Virus record (IMG/VR): IMGVR_UViG_3300027831_000001
Location: 3,952-67,951 of that record
DNA from: a virus
Direction: 5' to 3' (one strand)
Length of the DNA stretch: 64,000 nucleotides
Part shown: in pieces, positions 20,139 to 62,106 of the stretch
Numbering within the stretch: position 1 is the stretch's first letter
Layout: each line of letters starts with the position of its first letter
Notes under the pieces: generated by a model
Databases searched by the model: none
Seen by the model: the letters and a program-made list of their open reading frames with translations, nothing else
Told to the model about the DNA's origin: nothing
Made by a program: the position numbers and the translations under genes

Positions 20139-21203
20139 GTGCCGACGTCCAGCGCCCCTCAGTACGACCTACCGGCCTACGCGACCGACGGCGTCTATGT
20201 CGTGCCCGGCACGCCAACATGGGACGGCGCGGCTCGCCGGGTCGCGACCGGGATCGAAGCATGGGCGGCCGCCGGAGCCACGCCTGTAGGCGAGCGGCTG
20301 GCCCAGTCGGAGAATGAGTGGCTGGCCCGCGCCCAGGAGTGGAGCCAGTTCTCGCGCGACGAGCAGGGGACGGCCGTCTATGGCGACGGCTCAGCCGGCG
20401 TCGTCACACTTGGCGCAGGTACGACCACGCTTGCCGCCGATACGTACTACGACGACTTGACGGTGCCGAACGGGTCGACGTTGGCCACCGCCGGATTCCG
20501 GGTGTTCGTGGCCGGCCTGCTCTCCGTGGCGGTCGGCGGGGTGATCCATGCCGATGGCGGAGCGGCGAGCGGGGCCACGGGCGGCGCAGGAGCGCCCGTC
20601 GGGAGCCTCGGCGGCGGTACGGCTGGCGCCAACGGTGCGACCGACACGGCGCCGGGCCGTGCGGGCACGGTCGGCACCAGCATCACGTTTGCCCTCGGCG
20701 CACAGGGTGGCGCAGGCGGGATCGATGAGCAGGGCAACGCCGGCGGCGCGGGCGGGACGTTCACGGCCCCGGCGGCGAGCGTTGGCGGCAGTCGGCACGC
20801 CGCGGCCGCGCTGGGCTATCCGACGGGCAGCATCACGGCTTGGCGCGGTGGCTCCGGCGGCGGCTCTGGTGCCGTGTACGACGGCGGCACGGCGGGCGGG
20901 GGCGGGGGCGGTGCGGGCGTCCTGGTCTTGTGGGCCCGCAGGATCGACAATCAGGGGACCATCCGGGCCAACGGTGGAGCCGGAGGAAACGCGGTCGTGC
21001 TCGGCTCTGACGGTGTGGGCGGAGGAGGCGGCGGCGGTGGTGGCCGCGTGTTCGTGGTCCATCGCGAGGCTGTAGGCGGCACCCTTGGCACGATCCAGGT
21101 CAACGGCGGGGCCGGTGGGCTTGGTGGAACGAACCAGGCCACGCCTCCAGGTCTGGATGGCGTGGCCGGCGGCACCGGATCGATCGTGCTGCTGGTGGCC
21201 TAG
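20139..21203 (+). CDS. Glycine-rich tail fibre-like protein
   Basis: N-terminal ENEWL...QEW anchor; GDGS and GGGGG repeats; follows the baseplate genes. Confidence 0.7.
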   Translation: MPTSSAPQYDLPAYATDGVYVVPGTPTWDGAARRVATGIEAWAAAGATPVGERLAQSENEWLARAQEWSQFSRDEQGTAVYGDGSAGVVTLGAGTTTLAADTYYDDLTVPNGSTLATAGFRVFVAGLLSVAVGGVIHADGGAASGATGGAGAPVGSLGGGTAGANGATDTAPGRAGTVGTSITFALGAQGGAGGIDEQGNAGGAGGTFTAPAASVGGSRHAAAALGYPTGSITAWRGGSGGGSGAVYDGGTAGGGGGGAGVLVLWARRIDNQGTIRANGGAGGNAVVLGSDGVGGGGGGGGGRVFVVHREAVGGTLGTIQVNGGAGGLGGTNQATPPGLDGVAGGTGSIVLLVA

Positions 21204-29664: not shown

Positions 29665-31572
29665 ATGAACACGTACGCGAAGCTTCTTGATCACCTGCGG
29701 TCCGGCCCGGTGGGTCTAACCTTTCTCCGCGACGCCCTGGAGGATCTGCTAGAAGCCCTGGCCCGCGACCTAGGCCGCACGGTCGATCCGGCGACCCCTG
29801 AGGCCGAGGTTGCCCGGGCCGCCGCCGAGATCGACCGCTTGGCCCGGGCCGGCACGTCTTGCTTGGTCGTCGCCGCAGAGCCGCCCGCCCAGGCCATGGA
29901 GTCCCTGGTGGCGCTTGGCTGGTCCTGGGTCCCGATGCGCTCGGAGATGGTGCGCGACGGCGCGATGCCGATCCGGGTGGCCTGGACGTCCTCCGCGATC
30001 CGCGGTCCCAGCTGCGGGGCCCTCTGGCTTGTCGGCGCCACGCAAGCGATGGCCGCGGAGGCGCGCCGGGGCCTTCGCCGCCCGCCCGGGGTGACGATCA
30101 CGACCGGCATGGTGGATCGGTCGGTTCCGGCGGGTGTCGAGCCCGTGATCCGGGACACCGACACGACCGATCCGCCAAGCGATCCCGAGCCCGTGCTGCC
30201 TCCGGGGTGCTCGATGCGGCCGGCTACCAGCCCGCCGTCATGGTGGGTCGTGCACGGGCTGGGCCACATGGTTGGGAGCGGATCGTCGCCAGATGCGGCT
30301 GCGCATGACGCGTGGGCGCTGTTCGGACGCTTCATGTCCCGGGAGGACTACGAGGCCCTGGTGGCCGCGGATCTCCGCGAGCTCGCCACAGCACGACGGC
30401 TCGACGACGCGCGCTTTGCCTTGGACGCCGCCGGGGTTGGGGACGGCGACATCGCGGCGAGGATCGGTGTTCTCGCATCGGATGCGACGCACTTCCAGGC
30501 CACGGCCGCACGGCTGCGCAAGGACGTAGCCGATGCCCAGGAGCGCGAGCGGCTGGCCTGGGCAGAGCGCGACCGAGCCTCGGAGCTTGCCAACGAAGCC
30601 GAGCGCCGCGTGGCCGCCATGGAGGCCGAGCGGGATGCACGAGCGCGCGACCGGCTCGGCCTTGAACAGCAGGCCCAGCGAGGACGCGAGGCGGAGCGCG
30701 AGCTGGCCGACGCGCGCGAGGGTTGGCTCAGGGCTGAGCGACGGGCCGAGCGGGTGGCCGACCTGGAGCGCCGCCTGGAGGCCGAGCACGACGCGACCCA
30801 TGCGGCGGAGCTCCGAGCCGAGGCCGCGGAAGACCGTGTCCTGGAGTTGACGGCCGCGCGCGGCCATGCCCGCGAGGAAGCCGATCGTCTGCGCCTCCTG
30901 GCGAAGTCGCGAGCGGCCGAGATCCTCGCCCTACTCGACCAGGTCCGCGCCGCGGAGGGCGAGGCCGACCGAGCGAAGGCCGACGAACTCGTGGCCCGGC
31001 AGCGGCATGCTGCCCTGGGAGACCTGTACAACGCTGAGCGGGCCAGGTTGATCGCCGAGCGGGACGCGTATGCCCGCGACTGGGCGGAAGCCGTGGGCGA
31101 GTGCGACGCGGCCCGGGCCATGACCGAGCGGACCAACGAGCTCTTGGCCACGATCGAGCTGCGCGAGCGCGACGGATTGGCCCGCCTGACCGCCGAGCGC
31201 GACGAAGCCCTGGGCAAGCTCACCGCCGTGACCCAGGAGCGTGACAAGGCCTGGGCCACGGCCAAGCGGGCGGCCGCCATGCTGCCCCCGATCAAGATCT
31301 TCCGCTCGCCGGAGCCGGGCGTACGCGAGCGCGTCGTGTTCCCCGACGGCTCGGTATGCGTGGAGCGAGAGACCATGGACGACCATCGACGGCAGGGGCA
31401 GCCGTGGGTTGTCCTCTGGGAGGTCTCGCCGCCGTACCCGGCCGAGTCGATGGCGGCCGACTGGTCGCACGAGCGGCGGCGCGGCTGGGATCAGGCCCTC
31501 GCCGCGCTGACCCAGTCCCGCGATCGCGCGGGCGTCATGCTCCTGGGGCCCGAGGATCCCGACCATGACTAG
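29665..31572 (+). CDS. Large coiled-coil protein
   Basis: Long A/E/R heptad region; class B promoter. Confidence 0.75.
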   Translation: MNTYAKLLDHLRSGPVGLTFLRDALEDLLEALARDLGRTVDPATPEAEVARAAAEIDRLARAGTSCLVVAAEPPAQAMESLVALGWSWVPMRSEMVRDGAMPIRVAWTSSAIRGPSCGALWLVGATQAMAAEARRGLRRPPGVTITTGMVDRSVPAGVEPVIRDTDTTDPPSDPEPVLPPGCSMRPATSPPSWWVVHGLGHMVGSGSSPDAAAHDAWALFGRFMSREDYEALVAADLRELATARRLDDARFALDAAGVGDGDIAARIGVLASDATHFQATAARLRKDVADAQERERLAWAERDRASELANEAERRVAAMEAERDARARDRLGLEQQAQRGREAERELADAREGWLRAERRAERVADLERRLEAEHDATHAAELRAEAAEDRVLELTAARGHAREEADRLRLLAKSRAAEILALLDQVRAAEGEADRAKADELVARQRHAALGDLYNAERARLIAERDAYARDWAEAVGECDAARAMTERTNELLATIELRERDGLARLTAERDEALGKLTAVTQERDKAWATAKRAAAMLPPIKIFRSPEPGVRERVVFPDGSVCVERETMDDHRRQGQPWVVLWEVSPPYPAESMAADWSHERRRGWDQALAALTQSRDRAGVMLLGPEDPDHD

Positions 31573-31744
31573 CCCATGCCCGCTCTGCGGCTGCCCTGCC
31601 CCGGGCGGCCATGCCTGCTCGACCGTCCCGGCGCTCCCGCCCGTGCCGCTTGTGGTGGACCACCGGGGACGCCGGGCCCTGGTGGTGGCCGAGCCACCGG
31701 CCCCGCGTGAGCAGCGGGGTGAGCCGGTGCGCCGTCGCGGGTAG
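31565..31744 (+). CDS. 59-aa protein (MTSPCPLCG...)
   Basis: Translated by hand; overlaps the upstream stop. Confidence 0.5.
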   Translation: MTSPCPLCGCPAPGGHACSTVPALPPVPLVVDHRGRRALVVAEPPAPREQRGEPVRRRG

Positions 31745-31761
31745 TGTGCTAGGGTGGTCGC

Positions 31762-31858
31762 GCTTGTAGCGGTGCCCTGGTCCGCTGGTAGATGGGGCGC
31801 GCAACACAGGCCAGCCTGTGCGCGATGGGTTCGACTCCGAAAAGCCGGACAAGCAAGC
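31762..31858 (+). ncRNA. Structured tRNA-like RNA 1 (canonical T-loop motif)
   Basis: GTGTGCTAGGGT promoter; GCTTGT/ACAAGC terminal stem; GGGTTCGACTCC at 31827-31838; terminator downstream. Confidence 0.6.
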
Positions 31859-31894
31859 AAGGGCGGGACTCGCAAGGGTTCCGCCCTTCTCTTT
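31859..31894 (+). terminator. Intrinsic terminator
   Basis: AAGGGCGGGAC...GTTCCGCCCTT followed by CTCTTT. Confidence 0.75.
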
Positions 31895-31920
31895 GGTGCC
31901 GGGTAGTGTGCTAGAGTGGC

Positions 31921-32040
31921 CGCGCTGGGGAGCCAGCGCGAAGGTGGCCACCGGGCAGCGATCCAGCCGCGTCGTAGCTCAGCCGGGGAGAGCACCGAGA
32001 TGATCGGAGGACGGCCGCACACCCAAGCGGCCCAGCGCGT
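31921..32040 (+). ncRNA. Structured tRNA-like RNA 2 (canonical D-arm motif)
   Basis: GTGTGCTAGAGT promoter; TAGCTCAGCCGGGGAGAGC at 31975-31993; cloverleaf-like fold with a shortened anticodon arm and a non-canonical T-loop. Confidence 0.6.
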
Positions 32041-32077
32041 GAAGGGCGGGACTTGTAAGGGTTCCGCCCTTCTTTTT
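32041..32077 (+). terminator. Intrinsic terminator (near copy of 31859-31894)
   Basis: GAAGGGCGGGAC...GTTCCGCCCTTC followed by TTTTT. Confidence 0.8.
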
Positions 32078-32098
32078 GGTGCCGGTAGCCTCGCGCCC

Positions 32099-32863
32099 AT
32101 GCTGGCCCTGCTGCTCTGGCTCCTAGCCCTGTCGCCCCGCGAGGCCGTGGCGTTCGTGACCCCGGTGGAGCACGAGCGCCAGGCCTTGCTGGCCATCGGC
32201 TGGCGAGAGTCACGGCTCCGCCGGGTCGGCCGCCACAAGGCCGATGACCGGCCCCGAGGGTGGACGGGCGACGGCAACACGGCGGCCCGGCGCGTCGGCT
32301 CCCGAGCCTGGGCCCGAGCCGTCCAGCGCGGGATCGTCCGGCCGTGGTGTCAGCCCCTGGGCGACGCTCGAGACTGGAGCACCCGCGGGCCGTGGGGCCA
32401 GGTGGCGGCCTATGCCGTGCCCTACCTGCCGGCCTGCTCGCCCCCGTGGGTCTTGGATCTGCCCGTCGTGTCGGCCTGGGCAGCCGTCCAGCGCCTGCGG
32501 GTGGCCCGGGGATCCGGGGCTCCGCCGGCCCTGCGCAGGTGGGCCCGGGAGGAAATCGACACGGGTGCACAATATCGGTTGACCGCGGAACGGATTAGGA
32601 CTAGCTTACTTTTCATGAGCACCGCAACCGCCAGCCACTACGCCATCAAGACCGGCCGCACCTTCACCGTCGTCAGCGTCTACGCCGACCGCAACCAGTG
32701 CGCGGTGGATGCCACGGCCGGCGGGCGGATCGTCCACCCCTTCACGACCGACCGCGACATCAAGGCCGCCGCGCGCGACGGTGCCGGGGTCGGCTTCAAG
32801 ACCCTGCGCGACGCCTTGGAGAGCCGCGAGGGCGTGACCCGTCGTCGCGACCTGGACTGTTGA
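32099..32863 (+). CDS. Signal-peptide-bearing lytic transglycosylase-like protein, reading in frame into the 32615 gene
   Basis: Hydrophobic N-terminus; AIGWRES (catalytic Glu-like), GPWGQ and LDLP..SAWAA..RL; class A promoter. Confidence 0.6.
   Translation: MLALLLWLLALSPREAVAFVTPVEHERQALLAIGWRESRLRRVGRHKADDRPRGWTGDGNTAARRVGSRAWARAVQRGIVRPWCQPLGDARDWSTRGPWGQVAAYAVPYLPACSPPWVLDLPVVSAWAAVQRLRVARGSGAPPALRRWAREEIDTGAQYRLTAERIRTSLLFMSTATASHYAIKTGRTFTVVSVYADRNQCAVDATAGGRIVHPFTTDRDIKAAARDGAGVGFKTLRDALESREGVTRRRDLDC
32576..32614 (+). promoter_or_regulatory. Class C-like promoter inside a coding frame
   Basis: CGG-TTGACC-17 nt-TAGCTT-7 nt-ATGAGCACCGCAACC. Confidence 0.7.
32615..32863 (+). CDS. Early hypothetical protein (MSTATASHY...)
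   Basis: Own promoter; MSTAT start shared with other class C genes. Confidence 0.7.
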   Translation: MSTATASHYAIKTGRTFTVVSVYADRNQCAVDATAGGRIVHPFTTDRDIKAAARDGAGVGFKTLRDALESREGVTRRRDLDC

Positions 32864-32879: not shown

Positions 32880-34586
32880 GTGATCCTCGCCCCCGATGAC
32901 CTGCTGCCGAGCGGTCCAGCTCGCTGGACCCGGGAAGCCGTGGGCGAGGCCTGGGCCACATGCCGCCGCGCGCTCCGGGCCGCCTTGGCCGATCCGACGA
33001 TCGAGACCGTGGTGTGCCTCGCCGGGGCGCCGGCCTCGGGCAAGAGCACGTGGACGCGCGACCACGACGAGCCGGGCCTGGTGGTCTTTGATGCGTGCTG
33101 GGCCGAGCCGGGACGGCGGCGCGCGCTGGCCCAGCAGATCCGGCAGGCCGGCAAGGTCGCGATCGCCGTGTGGGTCGTGACCCCGTTGGAGGTCTGCCGG
33201 GAACGCAACGCCGCACGCCCGCCCGATCGCCACGTGCCCGACGGGGCCCTGACGCGCTCCTGGCTGGCCCTGCGCGAGTGCCCGCCCTCGCTGGCCGAGG
33301 GGTGGAGCCGGGTGCTCGTGCAGGACGGCACGGCCCCGCGGGTGCACGACGACGCGCTCCCGCCTGAGCGGCAGCTGGAGCGGCTCGGGCAGGCGCCGGC
33401 CAACCAGGCTTGGGCGCTCGCGCGCGGGCGCGTGCTACCGGCCTACCGGGAGGCCATGGCGCGCCTGGGAGAGCGCCGCGGGGCCGAGCCGCCGCCCCGG
33501 GTGGCCCAGTCGCTGCGGTCGCTCGCCAGGGCGTTGGAGCGCGGGCAGGCCGGCGACGACCAGGTGGGCCGGAGCCTGGGCCGGATCGGAGCTCGGGTGG
33601 AGCGGGCAGCTGTGCGCGAGGTCCAGACCCTGGTGGGCGAGCTCGTGCCGGGGTGGACGGCTGAGCCGCAAGACGAAGCGGTCTCGGACTGGGCCGAGCG
33701 GGTGGGCCAGCAGGTGGCCGACGTGCGGCGCCGGCTCGCGCCCGGGATCGATGCCGCGGTGGCCGAAGCATGGCGCAAGGGCTGGACCGCGGCGGAGCTC
33801 GAGCGCCACTGGAAGGAGCACGGCTTGCCGCTTGACGGCGGCGGGACGGCGGAGGGCCAAGGATCCGTGCTGGCCCACGACGCCCACGCGGGCCTGGTCC
33901 AGGAAGCGACGCGCGCGCACCAGGAAAGCGCGGGCCTCGACTGGTACGAATGGGAGCACAACCCCAGCGCGCACCCACGGCCCGAGCATGTGGCCCGCCA
34001 CGGCCAGGCCTTCCAGTGGAGCAAGCCGCCGGCCGACGGGCACCCCGGGACGCTGCGCAACTGCCGGTGTCGCGCCGTGCCGCTCGTCCGGCCCCAGGAT
34101 GTGGAGCGGCTGCGCGCCGTCGAGCGCCCGGCGATCTCAAGCGCTCCGCCGCCGACGGCGAAGATCGAACCCGGGAGCCGCGGCAACACGCGCGACCCGA
34201 TCCCGTTGGAGCTCGACGCCCCGACAAAAGAGGCTGCCGTTGCGGCGCTGGGCCGCGTGGGCCTGCGGGGTGTCGACATCATCGCGACCCGCAAGGGGCG
34301 ATCGGGCGTTGGCCGCTACCAGGGCACGGACCCCGCGCGAGCCTCTCGGATCGCCTTGGGCCAAGAGGGCCAGGCTGACGACGGGAAGCCCGTCGAGCCT
34401 CTGCGGATCCTGATCGAGATCGAGCACGACGGGACGACGAGCATGCACCTGCGGGACGGCAACCACAGGGCGATCGGCGCGCGCGAGGCCGGGGCAACGC
34501 ATCATGTGGCCGAGGTCGTGATCGCGCGCGAGACCGCCGGGGGCTGGACCGAGCAGAAACCATTCACGGCCGCCGTGGCCCTCTAG
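32880..34586 (+). CDS. MuF-type minor head protein with an N-terminal P-loop kinase and a C-terminal ParB/Srx-like domain
   Basis: GAPASGKS, VFDA and CRERNAAR; YEW...PRPEH...F.W..PP..GHPG...NCRC; LRDGNHRA. Confidence 0.8.
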   Translation: MILAPDDLLPSGPARWTREAVGEAWATCRRALRAALADPTIETVVCLAGAPASGKSTWTRDHDEPGLVVFDACWAEPGRRRALAQQIRQAGKVAIAVWVVTPLEVCRERNAARPPDRHVPDGALTRSWLALRECPPSLAEGWSRVLVQDGTAPRVHDDALPPERQLERLGQAPANQAWALARGRVLPAYREAMARLGERRGAEPPPRVAQSLRSLARALERGQAGDDQVGRSLGRIGARVERAAVREVQTLVGELVPGWTAEPQDEAVSDWAERVGQQVADVRRRLAPGIDAAVAEAWRKGWTAAELERHWKEHGLPLDGGGTAEGQGSVLAHDAHAGLVQEATRAHQESAGLDWYEWEHNPSAHPRPEHVARHGQAFQWSKPPADGHPGTLRNCRCRAVPLVRPQDVERLRAVERPAISSAPPPTAKIEPGSRGNTRDPIPLELDAPTKEAAVAALGRVGLRGVDIIATRKGRSGVGRYQGTDPARASRIALGQEGQADDGKPVEPLRILIEIEHDGTTSMHLRDGNHRAIGAREAGATHHVAEVVIARETAGGWTEQKPFTAAVAL

Positions 34587-37474: not shown

Positions 37475-38472
37475 CAGGCACCCCCGGCGGCTTGCTGCCG
37501 CATCGCCAGGGCCTCGCGGAGCTGCGACGCTGCCAGCCTGTACTGCTCAGCTGTGCCGGTCGTCTGGGGAAACTGGCCCGGCTCCACACCGATCGCTCGC
37601 TCACTCACCCCCCTGACCTCGGCGCGGAAAGTATCCAGTGTCGTGCGGGGCGGGTTCTCGCCGTTGGCCCGCCGGTAGTCCTCGGCTCGCCAGTTCATCA
37701 GTGCCTGGCCGGCCGCGAGCCAGTGCGCGTGCGCTTCCGTGGTCTCCAGATCCGCCGCGGGCTTGGTCTTGCCTCTCTTGGCGGGTACCGGCTCAGGCGT
37801 AGAGACCGCGGGTTGCGTCTTGGTCTCGCGCGGCGGGTCCAGTAGGCGGCGGGCCGCGGCGGTCATGGCCTGTACCTGCGCGTCCGTGGGTTGGTCGTCG
37901 TACACGACGCCCGCGGCCTCGCGGATCTCCGCGTGGGCCTTGGCCGTCGTGATCCGCTGAGTTTGCGCGTAGGCGTCCCGTGCGGCCTCGTAGGCCTCCC
38001 AGAGCGGATCGGCCTTGGGCTCAGGCTCCCGATCCGGTCGGCGGTCGTGTCCTCGCGGTGCCTTGCTGGCCGCGTTGCCGTCGTCATCATCGTCGTCGGG
38101 ACACACGGCGAGCGTGGCCGAGAGGCTGTAGCGGCGCGCGTAGGTGAAGGCCGATCCGATCTGCTGCGCCGTGGCGTTGCGGGCCAGCGGGATCGTGACC
38201 TTGCCGCTGCGGTATTCGTGCCCCTTCCAGAGCAGGACCGTCTCCACCACGCACTCCACGGCCGACTCGGTGATCACCGTGTGGGCCTCTTGCGGGTACG
38301 CGAACTCTTGTTCGTTCAGCGCGTCCTCGCAGGCGTCGCACACCGCGGCGAGCGTGGCGTATCGCGACTTGAATGCCGGGTTATTTCTATCTTTGCTCGC
38401 TCGCTTTACCTTTGCGAAGACGCGCGCGAGCGCGTCGTGGAACTCGGCCTTGCTTGGTGGTACCGTGCTCAT
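37474..38472 (-). CDS. erf: ERF-family single-strand annealing protein
   Basis: K...NPAFKSRYATL, QQIGSAFTYARRYSL and DDDGN. Confidence 0.9.
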   Translation of the reverse strand: MSTVPPSKAEFHDALARVFAKVKRASKDRNNPAFKSRYATLAAVCDACEDALNEQEFAYPQEAHTVITESAVECVVETVLLWKGHEYRSGKVTIPLARNATAQQIGSAFTYARRYSLSATLAVCPDDDDDDGNAASKAPRGHDRRPDREPEPKADPLWEAYEAARDAYAQTQRITTAKAHAEIREAAGVVYDDQPTDAQVQAMTAAARRLLDPPRETKTQPAVSTPEPVPAKRGKTKPAADLETTEAHAHWLAAGQALMNWRAEDYRRANGENPPRTTLDTFRAEVRGVSERAIGVEPGQFPQTTGTAEQYRLAASQLREALAMRQQAAGGA

Positions 38473-48716: not shown

Positions 48717-48973
48717 CCTGGACCGCAGCCCCACCACGCTGGCGACTCGCTCCTGTGCCCCGCCCGCCCGCGTGGATAGGCGACACGCCGGGCGAGCGCG
48801 TGGCGTCGATCGTGGCCGACGATCGACGGTGGGCCGCGGCCCTGCGGTGGACCCGGCGCAATCGGGCCCTGTACGTGGCGACCCAACAGATCGCCAAGGG
48901 CCTGCACGTCGTGGTCATGCGCGGCACGGCCCGTGCTCGGTTCCGGTTCGTGGAGCCGGCGCGGTGGTGCTAG
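48713..48973 (+). CDS. Hypothetical protein
   Basis: TTGA overlap. Confidence 0.5.
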   Translation: MTWTAAPPRWRLAPVPRPPAWIGDTPGERVASIVADDRRWAAALRWTRRNRALYVATQQIAKGLHVVVMRGTARARFRFVEPARWC

Positions 48974-55323: not shown

Positions 55324-55349
55324 CCGTCTCGGGCGAGCCGTGCTAGCGT
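55321..55349 (+). promoter_or_regulatory. Class B promoter with no start codon at the usual position
   Basis: TAGCCG-17 nt (ending GTGC)-TAGCGT. Confidence 0.65.
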
Positions 55350-55355
55350 GGCATC

Positions 55356-55435
55356 ACCCAGGCGGGTCGGAATGGTCCGTGCTCGTGTGCTCATCAAGGG
55401 GCTGTCCGGGGAGACCCGGGTGGCCCCTTGTCTTT
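55356..55435 (+). ncRNA. Candidate antisense sRNA with a tandem GTGCTCGT-GTGCTCAT seed
   Basis: Promoter, two small 5' hairpins, unpaired seed, then hairpin 55395-55430 followed by TCTTT. Confidence 0.55.
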
Positions 55436-55560
55436 CAGCGCTCCAGCGACGCGTCCCACTCACGCTCCGCGCGTTGACGCTCCAGCGGGGTCATGCCGGC
55501 ACGAAGCCGCCGCGAGTCGCCCAGATCCTCGCGGTCGCGGTTGAAGCCCGGGCGCCTCAC
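55435..55560 (-). CDS. 41-aa peptide (MRRPGFNRD...)
   Basis: GTGA overlap; translated by hand. Confidence 0.45.
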   Translation of the reverse strand: MRRPGFNRDREDLGDSRRLRAGMTPLERQRAEREWDASLER

Positions 55561-61953: not shown

Positions 61954-62020
61954 GGAGTCGGGTTCCTTGCACGCCCGAACCCCGCGGCGATGGCCAACGG
62001 GGTCAGGGGTAGGCAGGTAG

Positions 62021-62106
62021 TGGAGCTGCCAGGAATCGAACCCGGCCATCCGGCGCGTGACGCAAATACCAAAACCGTCGAAGCGCTCGGGCCACCGAGG
62101 AGCCCC
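62021..62106 (-). ncRNA. tmRNA-like tRNA-like domain without an mRNA-like domain (86 nt)
   Basis: 5' GGGGCT...TTCGACGG and 3' CCGGAT-GGCCGGG-TTCGATT-CCTGG-CAGCTCC-A; G3-U wobble pair. Confidence 0.7.

Follow-up and report, generated by a model that had tools for sequence, protein, structure and literature searches.

Introduction

Knowledge of the small RNAs encoded by phages lags far behind that of phage proteins, and for phages of high-GC hosts there is next to none. In this report we analyse a 354-nucleotide (nt) gap between two genes of an uncultured phage, in which two small RNA genes, here called unit 1 and unit 2, are predicted to lie in tandem. The genome is the 67,951-base-pair (bp) IMG/VR record IMGVR_UViG_3300027831_000001, a record with direct terminal repeats and a completeness rating of 100%. 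All positions refer to the window, the 64,000-nt stretch that was analysed (bases 3952-67951 of that record).

Several described systems come close to this arrangement. Non-decoding RNAs that resemble transfer RNA (tRNA) are already known in phages: RNAC and RNAD of phage T4 ('species 1 and 2') are stable, tRNA-like RNAs that do not decode, encoded within a tRNA gene cluster and excised from tRNA precursors. A second precedent comes from morons (Juhala et al. 2000, cited in PMC4104026). Passages of PMC4104026 describe genes for small RNAs (sRNAs) at moron sites of lambdoid prophages, termed anti-sRNAs, in which the 3' parts are conserved and the 5' parts variable, and sRNA genes at such sites are in that respect already known as well. 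A third is the Y RNAs of bacteria and phages which, according to passages of PMC4201824, mimic tRNA and may occur as two adjacent RNAs; phage YrlA is a further known non-decoding tRNA-like RNA. In the same passages, YrlA of M. smegmatis is cleaved by ribonuclease P (RNase P) and gains CCA, the YrlA genes described adjoin Ro60, and the order of the arms is permuted to T-acceptor-D. Finally, the phage tRNAs that resist or buffer tRNA-cleaving defences (PMC10264068) are functional decoding tRNAs with altered anticodon loops, and a large survey reports many tRNA-like candidates in IMG/VR (PMC10690425). A literature keyword search, which was not exhaustive, returned no description of RNA cassettes framed by promoter and terminator that swap their bodies, and none of tRNA mimics lacking an anticodon among phages that infect high-GC hosts.

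Against this background, we propose with a probability of roughly 0.55 that the two units are stand-alone RNA morons and that unit 2 is a tRNA-derived mimic, handled by tRNA-recognising enzymes, which diverts a host tRNA-binding factor. We base this proposal on the anatomy of the locus, the family and spacing of its promoters, its terminators, predicted starts that are non-coding, the cloverleaf predicted for unit 2 and the replacement of the cargo in relatives, from which transcription itself, processing and a decoy role would follow.

Results

Two units alike in design

The gap lies between a gene for a protein of 59 amino acids (aa; 31565-31744) and the gene that begins at 32099. Both units in it follow one design, namely a 27-nt promoter repeat, a body and a 44-nt terminator repeat, and the two bodies are mutually unrelated. 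The direct repeats of 27 nt (31738-31764 and 31900-31926) and of 44 nt (31859-31902 and 32042-32085, with TTTGGTGCCGG at the 3' end) are each 93% identical between copies, which bears out the two tandem units with a shared promoter and near-identical terminators reported in the initial annotation of this locus. The window contains two copies of GTAGTGTGCTAGRGT and no more, at 31741 and 31903; shuffled sequences average 0.05, and none of 100 reached two. The features of the locus, with the basis of each in brackets, are as follows:

31738-31764, plus strand: promoter repeat copy 1, with extended -10 element TGC-TAGGGT (31747-31755) and predicted start G31762 (repeat and motif family)
31762-31858, plus strand: unit 1 RNA body, 97 nt (folding)
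31859-31896, plus strand: intrinsic terminator 1, a 13-pair stem-loop (31859-31888) followed by CTCTTTGG (repeat and terminator scan)
31900-31926, plus strand: promoter repeat copy 2, with extended -10 element TGC-TAGAGT (31909-31917) and predicted start G31924 (repeat and motif family)
31924-31967, plus strand: 5' leader of unit 2, 44 nt, a self-folding hairpin with the 10-nt palindrome GGTGGCCACC (minimum free energy, MFE, and centroid folds)
31968-32040, plus strand: tRNA-shaped domain of unit 2, 73 nt (MFE and centroid folds)
32041-32079, plus strand: intrinsic terminator 2, a 14-pair stem-loop (32041-32072) followed by TTTTTGG (repeat and terminator scan)

The terminators stand out from the rest of the genome. 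A 2-kb scan yielded four terminator-like sites against 0.4 +/- 0.6 in shuffles, and the two cassette terminators are by far the strongest such sites in the 60 kb scanned; in three 20-kb scans all other candidates have 5-6 pairs and are as numerous as expected by chance. A similar arrangement recurs once more, far downstream:

55340-55436, plus strand: third unit, in which GTGCTAGCGT and a start predicted near 55356 precede a body of ~40 nt that includes a hairpin and, after it, a terminator hairpin of 16 pairs (motif and fold)

This third unit has a fold z-score of -2.90 and no start codon at its predicted 5' end, and it is probably a further small RNA gene.

A promoter family shared with leaderless genes

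The core of the promoter repeat, GTGCTAGRGT, is shared beyond the locus. There are eight exact copies of GTGCTAGNGT in the window and, when up to one mismatch is allowed, 21 matches against 8.1 +/- 2.4 in shuffles (maximum 15). We inspected 14 of these 21 sites, comprising the eight exact copies and six one-mismatch sites in which the TA of the hexamer is intact, and omitted the seven in which it is broken. ATG or GTG lies 6-8 nt past the hexamer at ten of the 14, and seven of those ten start codons are the exact starts of open reading frames (ORFs) that had been chosen independently by G+C content at third codon positions (GC3). Because of this spacing, we take these sites to be promoters of leaderless mRNAs:

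4628, 8588, 9410, 16411 (minus strand), 29625 (minus strand), 29648, 40702, 44017, 47850 and 49463: leaderless-gene promoter sites, with GTGCTAGNGT 6-8 nt before ATG or GTG

Two of them, 29625 on the minus strand and 29648 on the plus strand, form a divergent promoter pair, back to back. The other four inspected sites are those of unit 1, unit 2 and the third unit at 55340, plus a site at 48967 in which C takes the place of the last T in the hexamer.

Since the leaderless genes of this phage calibrate the promoter, placing the transcription start at the seventh to ninth base past the hexamer, the 5' ends of the RNAs can be predicted to the base. We used the commonest spacing, which is 6 nt followed by a purine start. 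This puts the predicted start of unit 1 at G31762, where its closing stem GCUUGU/ACAAGC begins, and that of unit 2 at G31924. There is no start codon at either predicted 5' end, and for this reason both units are considered non-coding. The suggestion that the units are transcribed independently is thereby strengthened by a phage-wide family of leaderless promoters as well as by strong terminators. Host RNA polymerase would transcribe each unit from an extended -10 element of the same type as that of the leaderless mRNAs of the phage, starting at G31762 and G31924 and ending at the strong intrinsic terminators, and the gap would then contain two independent non-coding RNA genes, i.e., morons with RNA, not protein, as their cargo.

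A predicted tRNA-shaped RNA in unit 2

When unit 2 was folded without constraints from G31924 to the last base before the terminator, both the MFE and the centroid structures consisted of a leader hairpin and a cloverleaf. The 73-nt part folded alone gave the same cloverleaf, with an ensemble frequency of 0.26. Its parts, all on the plus strand, are:

31968-31974 paired with 32033-32039: acceptor stem, 6 of 7 pairs (C-G, G-C, C-G, G-C, U.G, C x A, G-C)
U8 and A9 after the 5' strand of the acceptor, A26 after the D-arm: connectors
31977-31993: D-arm, stem GCUC/GAGC and loop AGCCGGGGA
31995-32007: anticodon-like arm, 4 bp (CCGA/UCGG) and 5-nt loop GAUGA
32008-32012: variable loop AGGAC
32013-32032: T-like arm, 6 bp (GGCCGC/GCGGCC) and non-canonical loop ACACCCAA
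32040: U32040 at the discriminator position, with the terminator directly after

The canonical D-arm, the shortened anticodon arm and the non-canonical T-loop that had been noticed in unit 2 are all found in this structure. In the standard numbering of tRNA positions, U8-A14, G15-C48, G18G19, A21 and G46 have roles in the tRNA core. All of these nucleotides are in place in unit 2, which reads TAGCTCAGCCGGGGAGAGC at 31975-31993, and a cloverleaf with a 7-bp acceptor, U8, A14, R15, G18G19, A21 and Y48 is found in unit 2 only, with six of the seven acceptor pairs. The two tips depart from tRNA. An anticodon arm of tRNA type has a 5-bp stem and a 7-nt loop with U33, in place of which unit 2 has 4 bp and a 5-nt loop; a canonical T-arm has a 5-bp stem and the loop TTCRANY, in place of which unit 2 has 6 bp and ACACCCAA. 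Because its 5-nt anticodon loop has no U33 and its T-loop is foreign, unit 2 should be unable to decode.

This combination is rare. The D-arm consensus TAGCTCAGNNNGGNAGAGC has one exact match in the window, where the expectation is 0.13 even at two mismatches. A cloverleaf MFE structure with tRNA-like connectors was obtained for two of 3000 dinucleotide shuffles, and the same cloverleaf shape for 17 of 19,394 segments of 73 nt from the genome, one of which is unit 2 itself. Compared with tRNA-Ile(GAT) of Sphingobium phage Lacusarx, unit 2 is identical at 43 of 76 positions, including 22 of 27 at the 5' end. By eye, the two share the anticodon stem CCGA/UCGG, and GAU is retained in the shortened loop. 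Further BLAST matches of the D-arm are to a tRNA-Val gene, called as such by ARAGORN, and to tRNA-Phe genes. We interpret unit 2 as the descendant of a tRNA gene, of which it has kept the body and lost both functional tips.

The alternative folds that had been suggested for unit 2 were recovered and depend on where the RNA begins: the probability of the acceptor stem is 0.00 for a start at 31922, 0.33 at 31923, 0.67 at 31924, 0.47 at 31925 and 0.19 at 31926. With a start at 31922, the 3' strand CCCAGCGCG pairs with the 5' end of the RNA instead of with the acceptor.

Unusual relatives of tRNA genes occur in other phages. In Xanthomonas phage 10KY502B (OQ622092.1, ~20690-20720), a 5' tRNA fragment comprising the acceptor strand and the D-arm lies directly after tRNA-Thr, has no 3' half and shares 18 identical bases with unit 2. 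Streptomyces phage phiSAJS1 (KT989433.2, ~37800-37980, reverse strand) has an unannotated tRNA-like gene, not called by ARAGORN, with canonical acceptor, D-arm and T-arm and an insert of ~70 nt in the place of the anticodon arm.

Unit 1 as a structured RNA

In unit 1, the closing stem GCTTGT/ACAAGC (31762-31767 with 31849-31854) has a pair probability of ~0.82 and the hairpin CACAGG/CCTGTG (31805-31810 with 31815-31820) one of ~1.0, in agreement with the closing stem and the ACAGGC arm of the initial annotation. The predicted structure also includes a long imperfect hairpin at 31769-31802, weak small hairpins and a 3' tail AAGC, and it contains no anticodon-type arm. The same annotation had described unit 1 as lacking a D-arm. 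A D-like hairpin GCGG/CCGC is in fact possible, yet its probability is 0.01. It had also credited unit 1 with a canonical T-loop. The T-loop-like motif GGGTTCGACTCC is indeed present at 31827-31838, with the loop sequence TTCGACT, but its significance did not hold up. Three of five T-stem pairs are possible and the arm does not appear in the predicted ensemble; the motif GGTTCGANTCC has two exact copies in the window, the second at 62032 on the minus strand, and six matches with at most one mismatch against 4.0 expected.

The best BLAST match of unit 1 (H41) falls in coding sequence and was dismissed as chance. We also rejected unit 1 as a tRNA mimic, on account of the chance-level motif, the three of five T-stem pairs, a fold z-score of +0.21 and no match in Rfam. 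The tRNA mimicry once proposed for both units is therefore retained for unit 2, which is predicted to be tRNA-shaped with a canonical core, and is not supported for unit 1, which the folding suggests to be a structured RNA whose likeness to tRNA is not established.

A variable slot in related phages

Three sequencing runs (X2, X3 and X4; wastewater, one study) each contain one contig, of 6024, 8886 and 899 nt, respectively, in which both flanks are ~94-95% identical to this phage and 31760 is joined to 32042 with 61 differing letters between. The runs are labelled RNA-Seq complementary DNA and flagged as possibly DNA, and as contigs they are uninformative on expression or RNA ends. They point to a relative in which the promoter and terminator of this phage enclose just one body, and a different one. 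The boundaries of the exchange lie ~2 nt upstream of the predicted start and on the base that opens the terminator stem. A run from another study (X6) has a contig of 551 nt that spans 31314-31855 and differs at 28 letters, which indicates that unit 1 is present in a second phage.

The retention of unit 1 in that second phage bears on the possibility that the bodies are decaying, functionless tRNA pseudogenes caught between a promoter and a terminator that are still active. Such decay could account for the rejection of both units by ARAGORN and Rfam, for a unit 2 with a shortened anticodon loop and a lost T-loop next to a unit 1 that keeps the motif alone, and it has parallels in the tRNA fragments and odd tRNA-like genes of other phages, such as the two described above. 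Beyond the conservation of unit 1, however, this phage has no tRNA genes and hence no obvious source cluster, each body sits between an intact promoter and one of the genome's two strongest terminators, the start deduced from the promoter coincides with the first base of the unit 1 closing stem, and 350 nt of junk would rarely be kept in the late operon of a 68-kb phage. We regard this explanation as quite improbable.

A profile built on the downstream protein retrieved more remote kin, at 36-45% identity, in two viral and eight metagenome loci; none of these ten loci has RNA units. In one (L007), the -10 motif of the slot leads directly into the homologous gene. In another (L009, 391-510), the slot promoter drives a leaderless Cys-rich, zinc-ribbon-like ORF of ~35 aa, and in a third (L008, 967-1235) a leaderless acidic ORF of ~80 aa. 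Homologues of the bodies were found neither by blastn against 50,697 phage records at an expectation value (E) <= 1e-5 nor by exact-pattern scans of IMG/VR for the promoter, the terminator, the unit 2 arm and the T-region of unit 1. Single-protein scans of IMG/VR yielded no relatives, nor did the downstream-protein profile run against genome contigs. Relatives were also sought via spurious ORFs across the gap: eight exact look-ups were absent from the collection, and a HMMER search with a 115-aa antisense translation gave three low-complexity matches and nothing else.

Because the cargo varies among kin, the slot can be described as a hot spot for self-expressed accessory cargo, which is a moron by definition. 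The cargo appears to be framed by its own promoter and terminator, and it is inserted between genes that are adjacent in relatives, with varying content. In this phage and its nearest relative, the predicted cargo is RNA. The flanks had been likened to a reusable expression cassette, and this idea is reinforced by the different 61-nt body of the ~94% identical relative and by the third unit at 55340-55436. The slot seems to behave as a site for swappable accessory RNAs, where promoter and terminator are kept and bodies are exchanged among related phages.

The relatives are equally informative on whether unit 2, or both units, could be a cis-acting leader (attenuator or riboswitch) governing read-through into 32099-32863. 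The succession of promoter, structured leader, terminator and gene is that of an attenuator, and the 3' strand CCCAGCGCG has two alternative partners. The alternative pairings are nevertheless upstream of the terminator stem, with which no segment competes; the same terminator follows two unrelated bodies here and a third body in the relative; there is no match to a riboswitch or leader family; and in L007 the promoter drives the gene without any leader. The downstream gene moreover has a -10-like element of its own, at leaderless spacing:

32086-32098, plus strand: weaker -10-like TAGCCT (32086-32091), 7 nt, then ATG (spacing matches the calibrated leaderless set)

This element is likely the gene's own leaderless promoter, in which case the gene need not rely on read-through. 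A leader is very improbable, and this class was rejected also in the family searches, in which no fold competing with the terminator stem and no Rfam cis-regulatory match above noise was found.

Comparison with known RNA families

Membership of the tRNA family was judged by a score of 29 bits with RF00005 or a call by ARAGORN. ARAGORN found no tRNA gene in the phage (0 in the window) and no tmRNA (transfer-messenger RNA), and when its thresholds were lowered to 70-95% it returned artefacts alone, with 'introns' of 20-150 nt. The sole match to RF00005 in the whole genome scores 8.1 bits and lies at 62029-62045 on the minus strand. No Rfam family matched the units at E <= 10 apart from junk matches. 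Rfam 15 contains models for YrlA and C4, and the checks originally suggested (ARAGORN, and Rfam for tRNA, YrlA and C4) came back negative at that threshold.

Several candidate classes were rejected in turn: tmRNA (RF00023), two-piece forms included, with no ARAGORN call and no match at E <= 10; YrlA or another bacterial Y RNA, with no covariance-model match at E <= 10; the C4 antisense RNA of P1/P7-type phages, with no Rfam match; and a ToxI-like RNA of a type III toxin-antitoxin system, as the bodies are unrelated, the flanks alone repeat and the downstream protein has no match to a toxin family.

The Y RNAs deserve closer attention since a Y-RNA-like identity had been entertained from the start. 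The units would in that case be YrlA/YrlB-like partners of a host Ro60/Rsr, with the tRNA-like domain recruiting tRNA enzymes or polynucleotide phosphorylase (PNPase). Both units offer closing-stem options between their 5' and 3' ends, and the passages of PMC4201824 cited above supply precedents in tRNA mimicry, in pairs of RNAs, and in the RNase P cleavage and CCA of M. smegmatis YrlA. The lack of any Rfam family match at E <= 10 speaks against this identity, as does the domain order of unit 2, which is that of tRNA and not the permuted T-acceptor-D order of YrlA (PMC4201824). There is also no TROVE/Ro60 gene in the 67,951-bp genome, in a search that detected the Deinococcus and Bacteroides positive controls, whereas the YrlA genes described in PMC4201824 adjoin Ro60. 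We consider this identity extremely improbable.

The region of the RF00005 match has features of its own. At 62020-62060 on the minus strand, CCGGGTTCGATTCCTGGCAGCTCCAC resembles the T-arm and 3' acceptor strand of a tmRNA or tRNA gene. This site could be the relic of an attachment site, but no integrase was found. An exact match of the tmRNA-like 3' end was found in none of 185,579 species genomes.

Pairing of the RNAs with each other and with phage targets

Cofold and duplex energies for all three pairings among unit 1, unit 2 and the third unit were no better than those of 100 shuffles, and the 'complementary defects' of the two units, understood as a functional pairing, find no support in them. 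Antisense targets within the 67,951-bp phage amount to matches of 9-17 nt at most, which is chance level. The link between GAGCACCGAG in unit 2 and a 'seed' target at 55379 was likewise discarded, being a match of 6-10 nt without significance.

These results are relevant to the explanation that both RNAs are trans-acting sRNAs that pair with host or phage mRNAs or with host sRNAs, with the tRNA likeness of unit 2 a functionless relic. The units have the typical design of phage sRNAs, being short, with their own promoter and an intrinsic terminator; the anti-sRNAs at moron sites offer a precedent (passages of PMC4104026); the body is replaced in a close relative, as predicted for regulators in an arms race; and the third short unit at 55340 fits the same pattern. 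Against this, the antisense matches within the phage, at <=12-17 nt, are those expected by chance, and the nucleotides of tRNA tertiary contacts in unit 2 (U8, A14, G15-C48, A21) would be superfluous for pairing. We think this explanation unlikely.

The phage, its host and the flanking genes

The locus is housed in the head-morphogenesis region, with genes for terminase (25111), portal (27122), a MuF-like protein (32880) and major capsid protein (59101). The nearest isolated phages are remote, as the portal and capsid proteins have <=29% identity to any record. Four hints weakly suggest that the host is an actinobacterium: the high G+C content (~71%); an amidase whose 65 matching phage records, at ~38% identity across 45% of its length, are all either endolysins from Streptomyces phages (48) or from Clostridium phages (17); the leaderless gene starts; and a -10 element of the form TANNNT with upstream TGN, which is a type found in actinobacterial promoters. 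The genes on either side of the units are:

31565-31744, plus strand: upstream gene, 59 aa (MTSPCPLCGC...), whose stop codon TAG lies inside the first GTAGTG of the promoter repeat (translation)
32099-32863, plus strand: downstream gene, 254 aa, with a signal-peptide-like N-terminus (start fixed by homologues)

In a manual count, seven of the nine listed differences between the 59-aa gene and its counterpart in the ~94% identical relative fall on third codon positions, and because of this bias we regard the gene as real; it has no Pfam or PHROG family match. The start of the downstream gene is set by 20 homologues that all begin at MLALLL. Members of this protein family are ~155 aa long and have the invariant motifs RE, H.D, W..RG..G..AAY and C.PPW.LD; the protein in this phage has an additional tail of ~100 aa beyond the family length, and no Pfam, PHROG or PDB relative was found for it. 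The MuF-like head protein (32880-34586) has an N-terminal AAA_33 (kinase-like P-loop) domain, which is an unusual fusion.

Discussion

The explanation that we prefer, in which the units are RNA morons and unit 2 acts as a tRNA mimic, entails the following sequence of events. Unit 1 would produce an RNA of ~135 nt with a closing stem between its 5' and 3' ends and a multibranched body, while the primary transcript of unit 2, of ~155 nt, would consist of the 44-nt leader hairpin, the 73-nt cloverleaf and the terminator hairpin. RNase P might then cut unit 2 at 31967/31968, followed by trimming of the 3' end and addition of CCA. The tRNA-shaped RNA would bind or divert a tRNA-binding factor of the host, with a defence-related one the most plausible. 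A tRNA that has lost both functional tips and kept its core is how a mimic should look if its targets are proteins that take hold of the body of a tRNA, and cargo that differs between ~94% identical phages is typical of loci in conflict with the host.

A number of results weigh against this explanation. To begin with, the RNAs are known here as predictions from sequence. The RF00005 covariance model matched neither unit at E <= 10, even when each was scanned alone, and the similarities of unit 2 to true tRNAs in BLAST are individually at chance level, with E-values from 0.2 to 9. The fold energies are ordinary for the G+C content, with z-scores of -1.01 for the cloverleaf of unit 2 and +0.21 for unit 1, and the cloverleaf hinges on the exact 5' end of the RNA. 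The database searches above returned no homologue of either body. In a scan of 29 ORFs, none appeared to encode an enzyme that handles tRNA, and the host is placed through weak hints.

A more far-reaching version of this idea combines the variable slot with a specific role for unit 2. Promoter and terminator would be the fixed 'handles' of an exchangeable slot for RNA cargo, whose bodies are swapped by recombination among actinophage-like viruses, and unit 2, with neither anticodon loop nor elbow, would act as a sponge or decoy that occupies a factor of host immunity specific for the body or the 3' end of tRNA. The 44-nt leader set free by RNase P might then be a further product. In this complete form the proposal is doubtful. 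Candidate targets of such a decoy are tRNA-cleaving or tRNA-3'-end-modifying toxins of abortive-infection or toxin-antitoxin systems. Should the decoy idea be true, it would add an RNA-based counter-defence against tRNA-directed immunity; should it be false, the locus would still be useful as an illustration of RNA morons and, within an uncultured phage, of a family of leaderless-type promoters. In either case, with three apparently self-contained RNA genes, it offers a clean and testable case.

How does the locus compare with known systems? Like RNAC and RNAD of T4, unit 2 would be a small, tRNA-shaped phage RNA without a decoding function. Unlike them, it belongs to a phage that has no tRNA genes, and each RNA here has its own promoter and terminator. 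With YrlA/YrlB, as presented in the passages of PMC4201824, the locus shares D- and T-like arms, tRNA mimicry, two adjacent RNAs and possible handling by RNase P and CCA addition, and it differs from them in that the phage has no Ro60, no model match was obtained and the arm order of unit 2 is that of tRNA. The tRNAs described in PMC10264068 share with unit 2 the idea that tRNA-type RNAs of phages answer a host attack on tRNAs, but unit 2 is non-decoding, with a 5-nt loop that has no U33.

The closest parallel in organisation is with the morons and anti-sRNAs of lambdoid prophages. As in the passages of PMC4104026 that describe these, the locus is an independent unit of promoter, cargo and terminator between conserved genes of the late operon, it is absent or different in relatives, and it combines a conserved with a variable part. 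A role in lysogenic conversion is not evident here because no integrase was found, the search having covered tyrosine and serine recombinases of the phage. In further contrast to lambdoid morons, the promoter is of a host type of the leaderless class and one of the cargoes appears to be derived from a tRNA. Finally, where the anti-sRNAs in those passages of PMC4104026 vary in their 5' parts and conserve their 3' parts, in the present locus it is the promoter and the terminator that are conserved, while the whole transcribed body between them is replaced.

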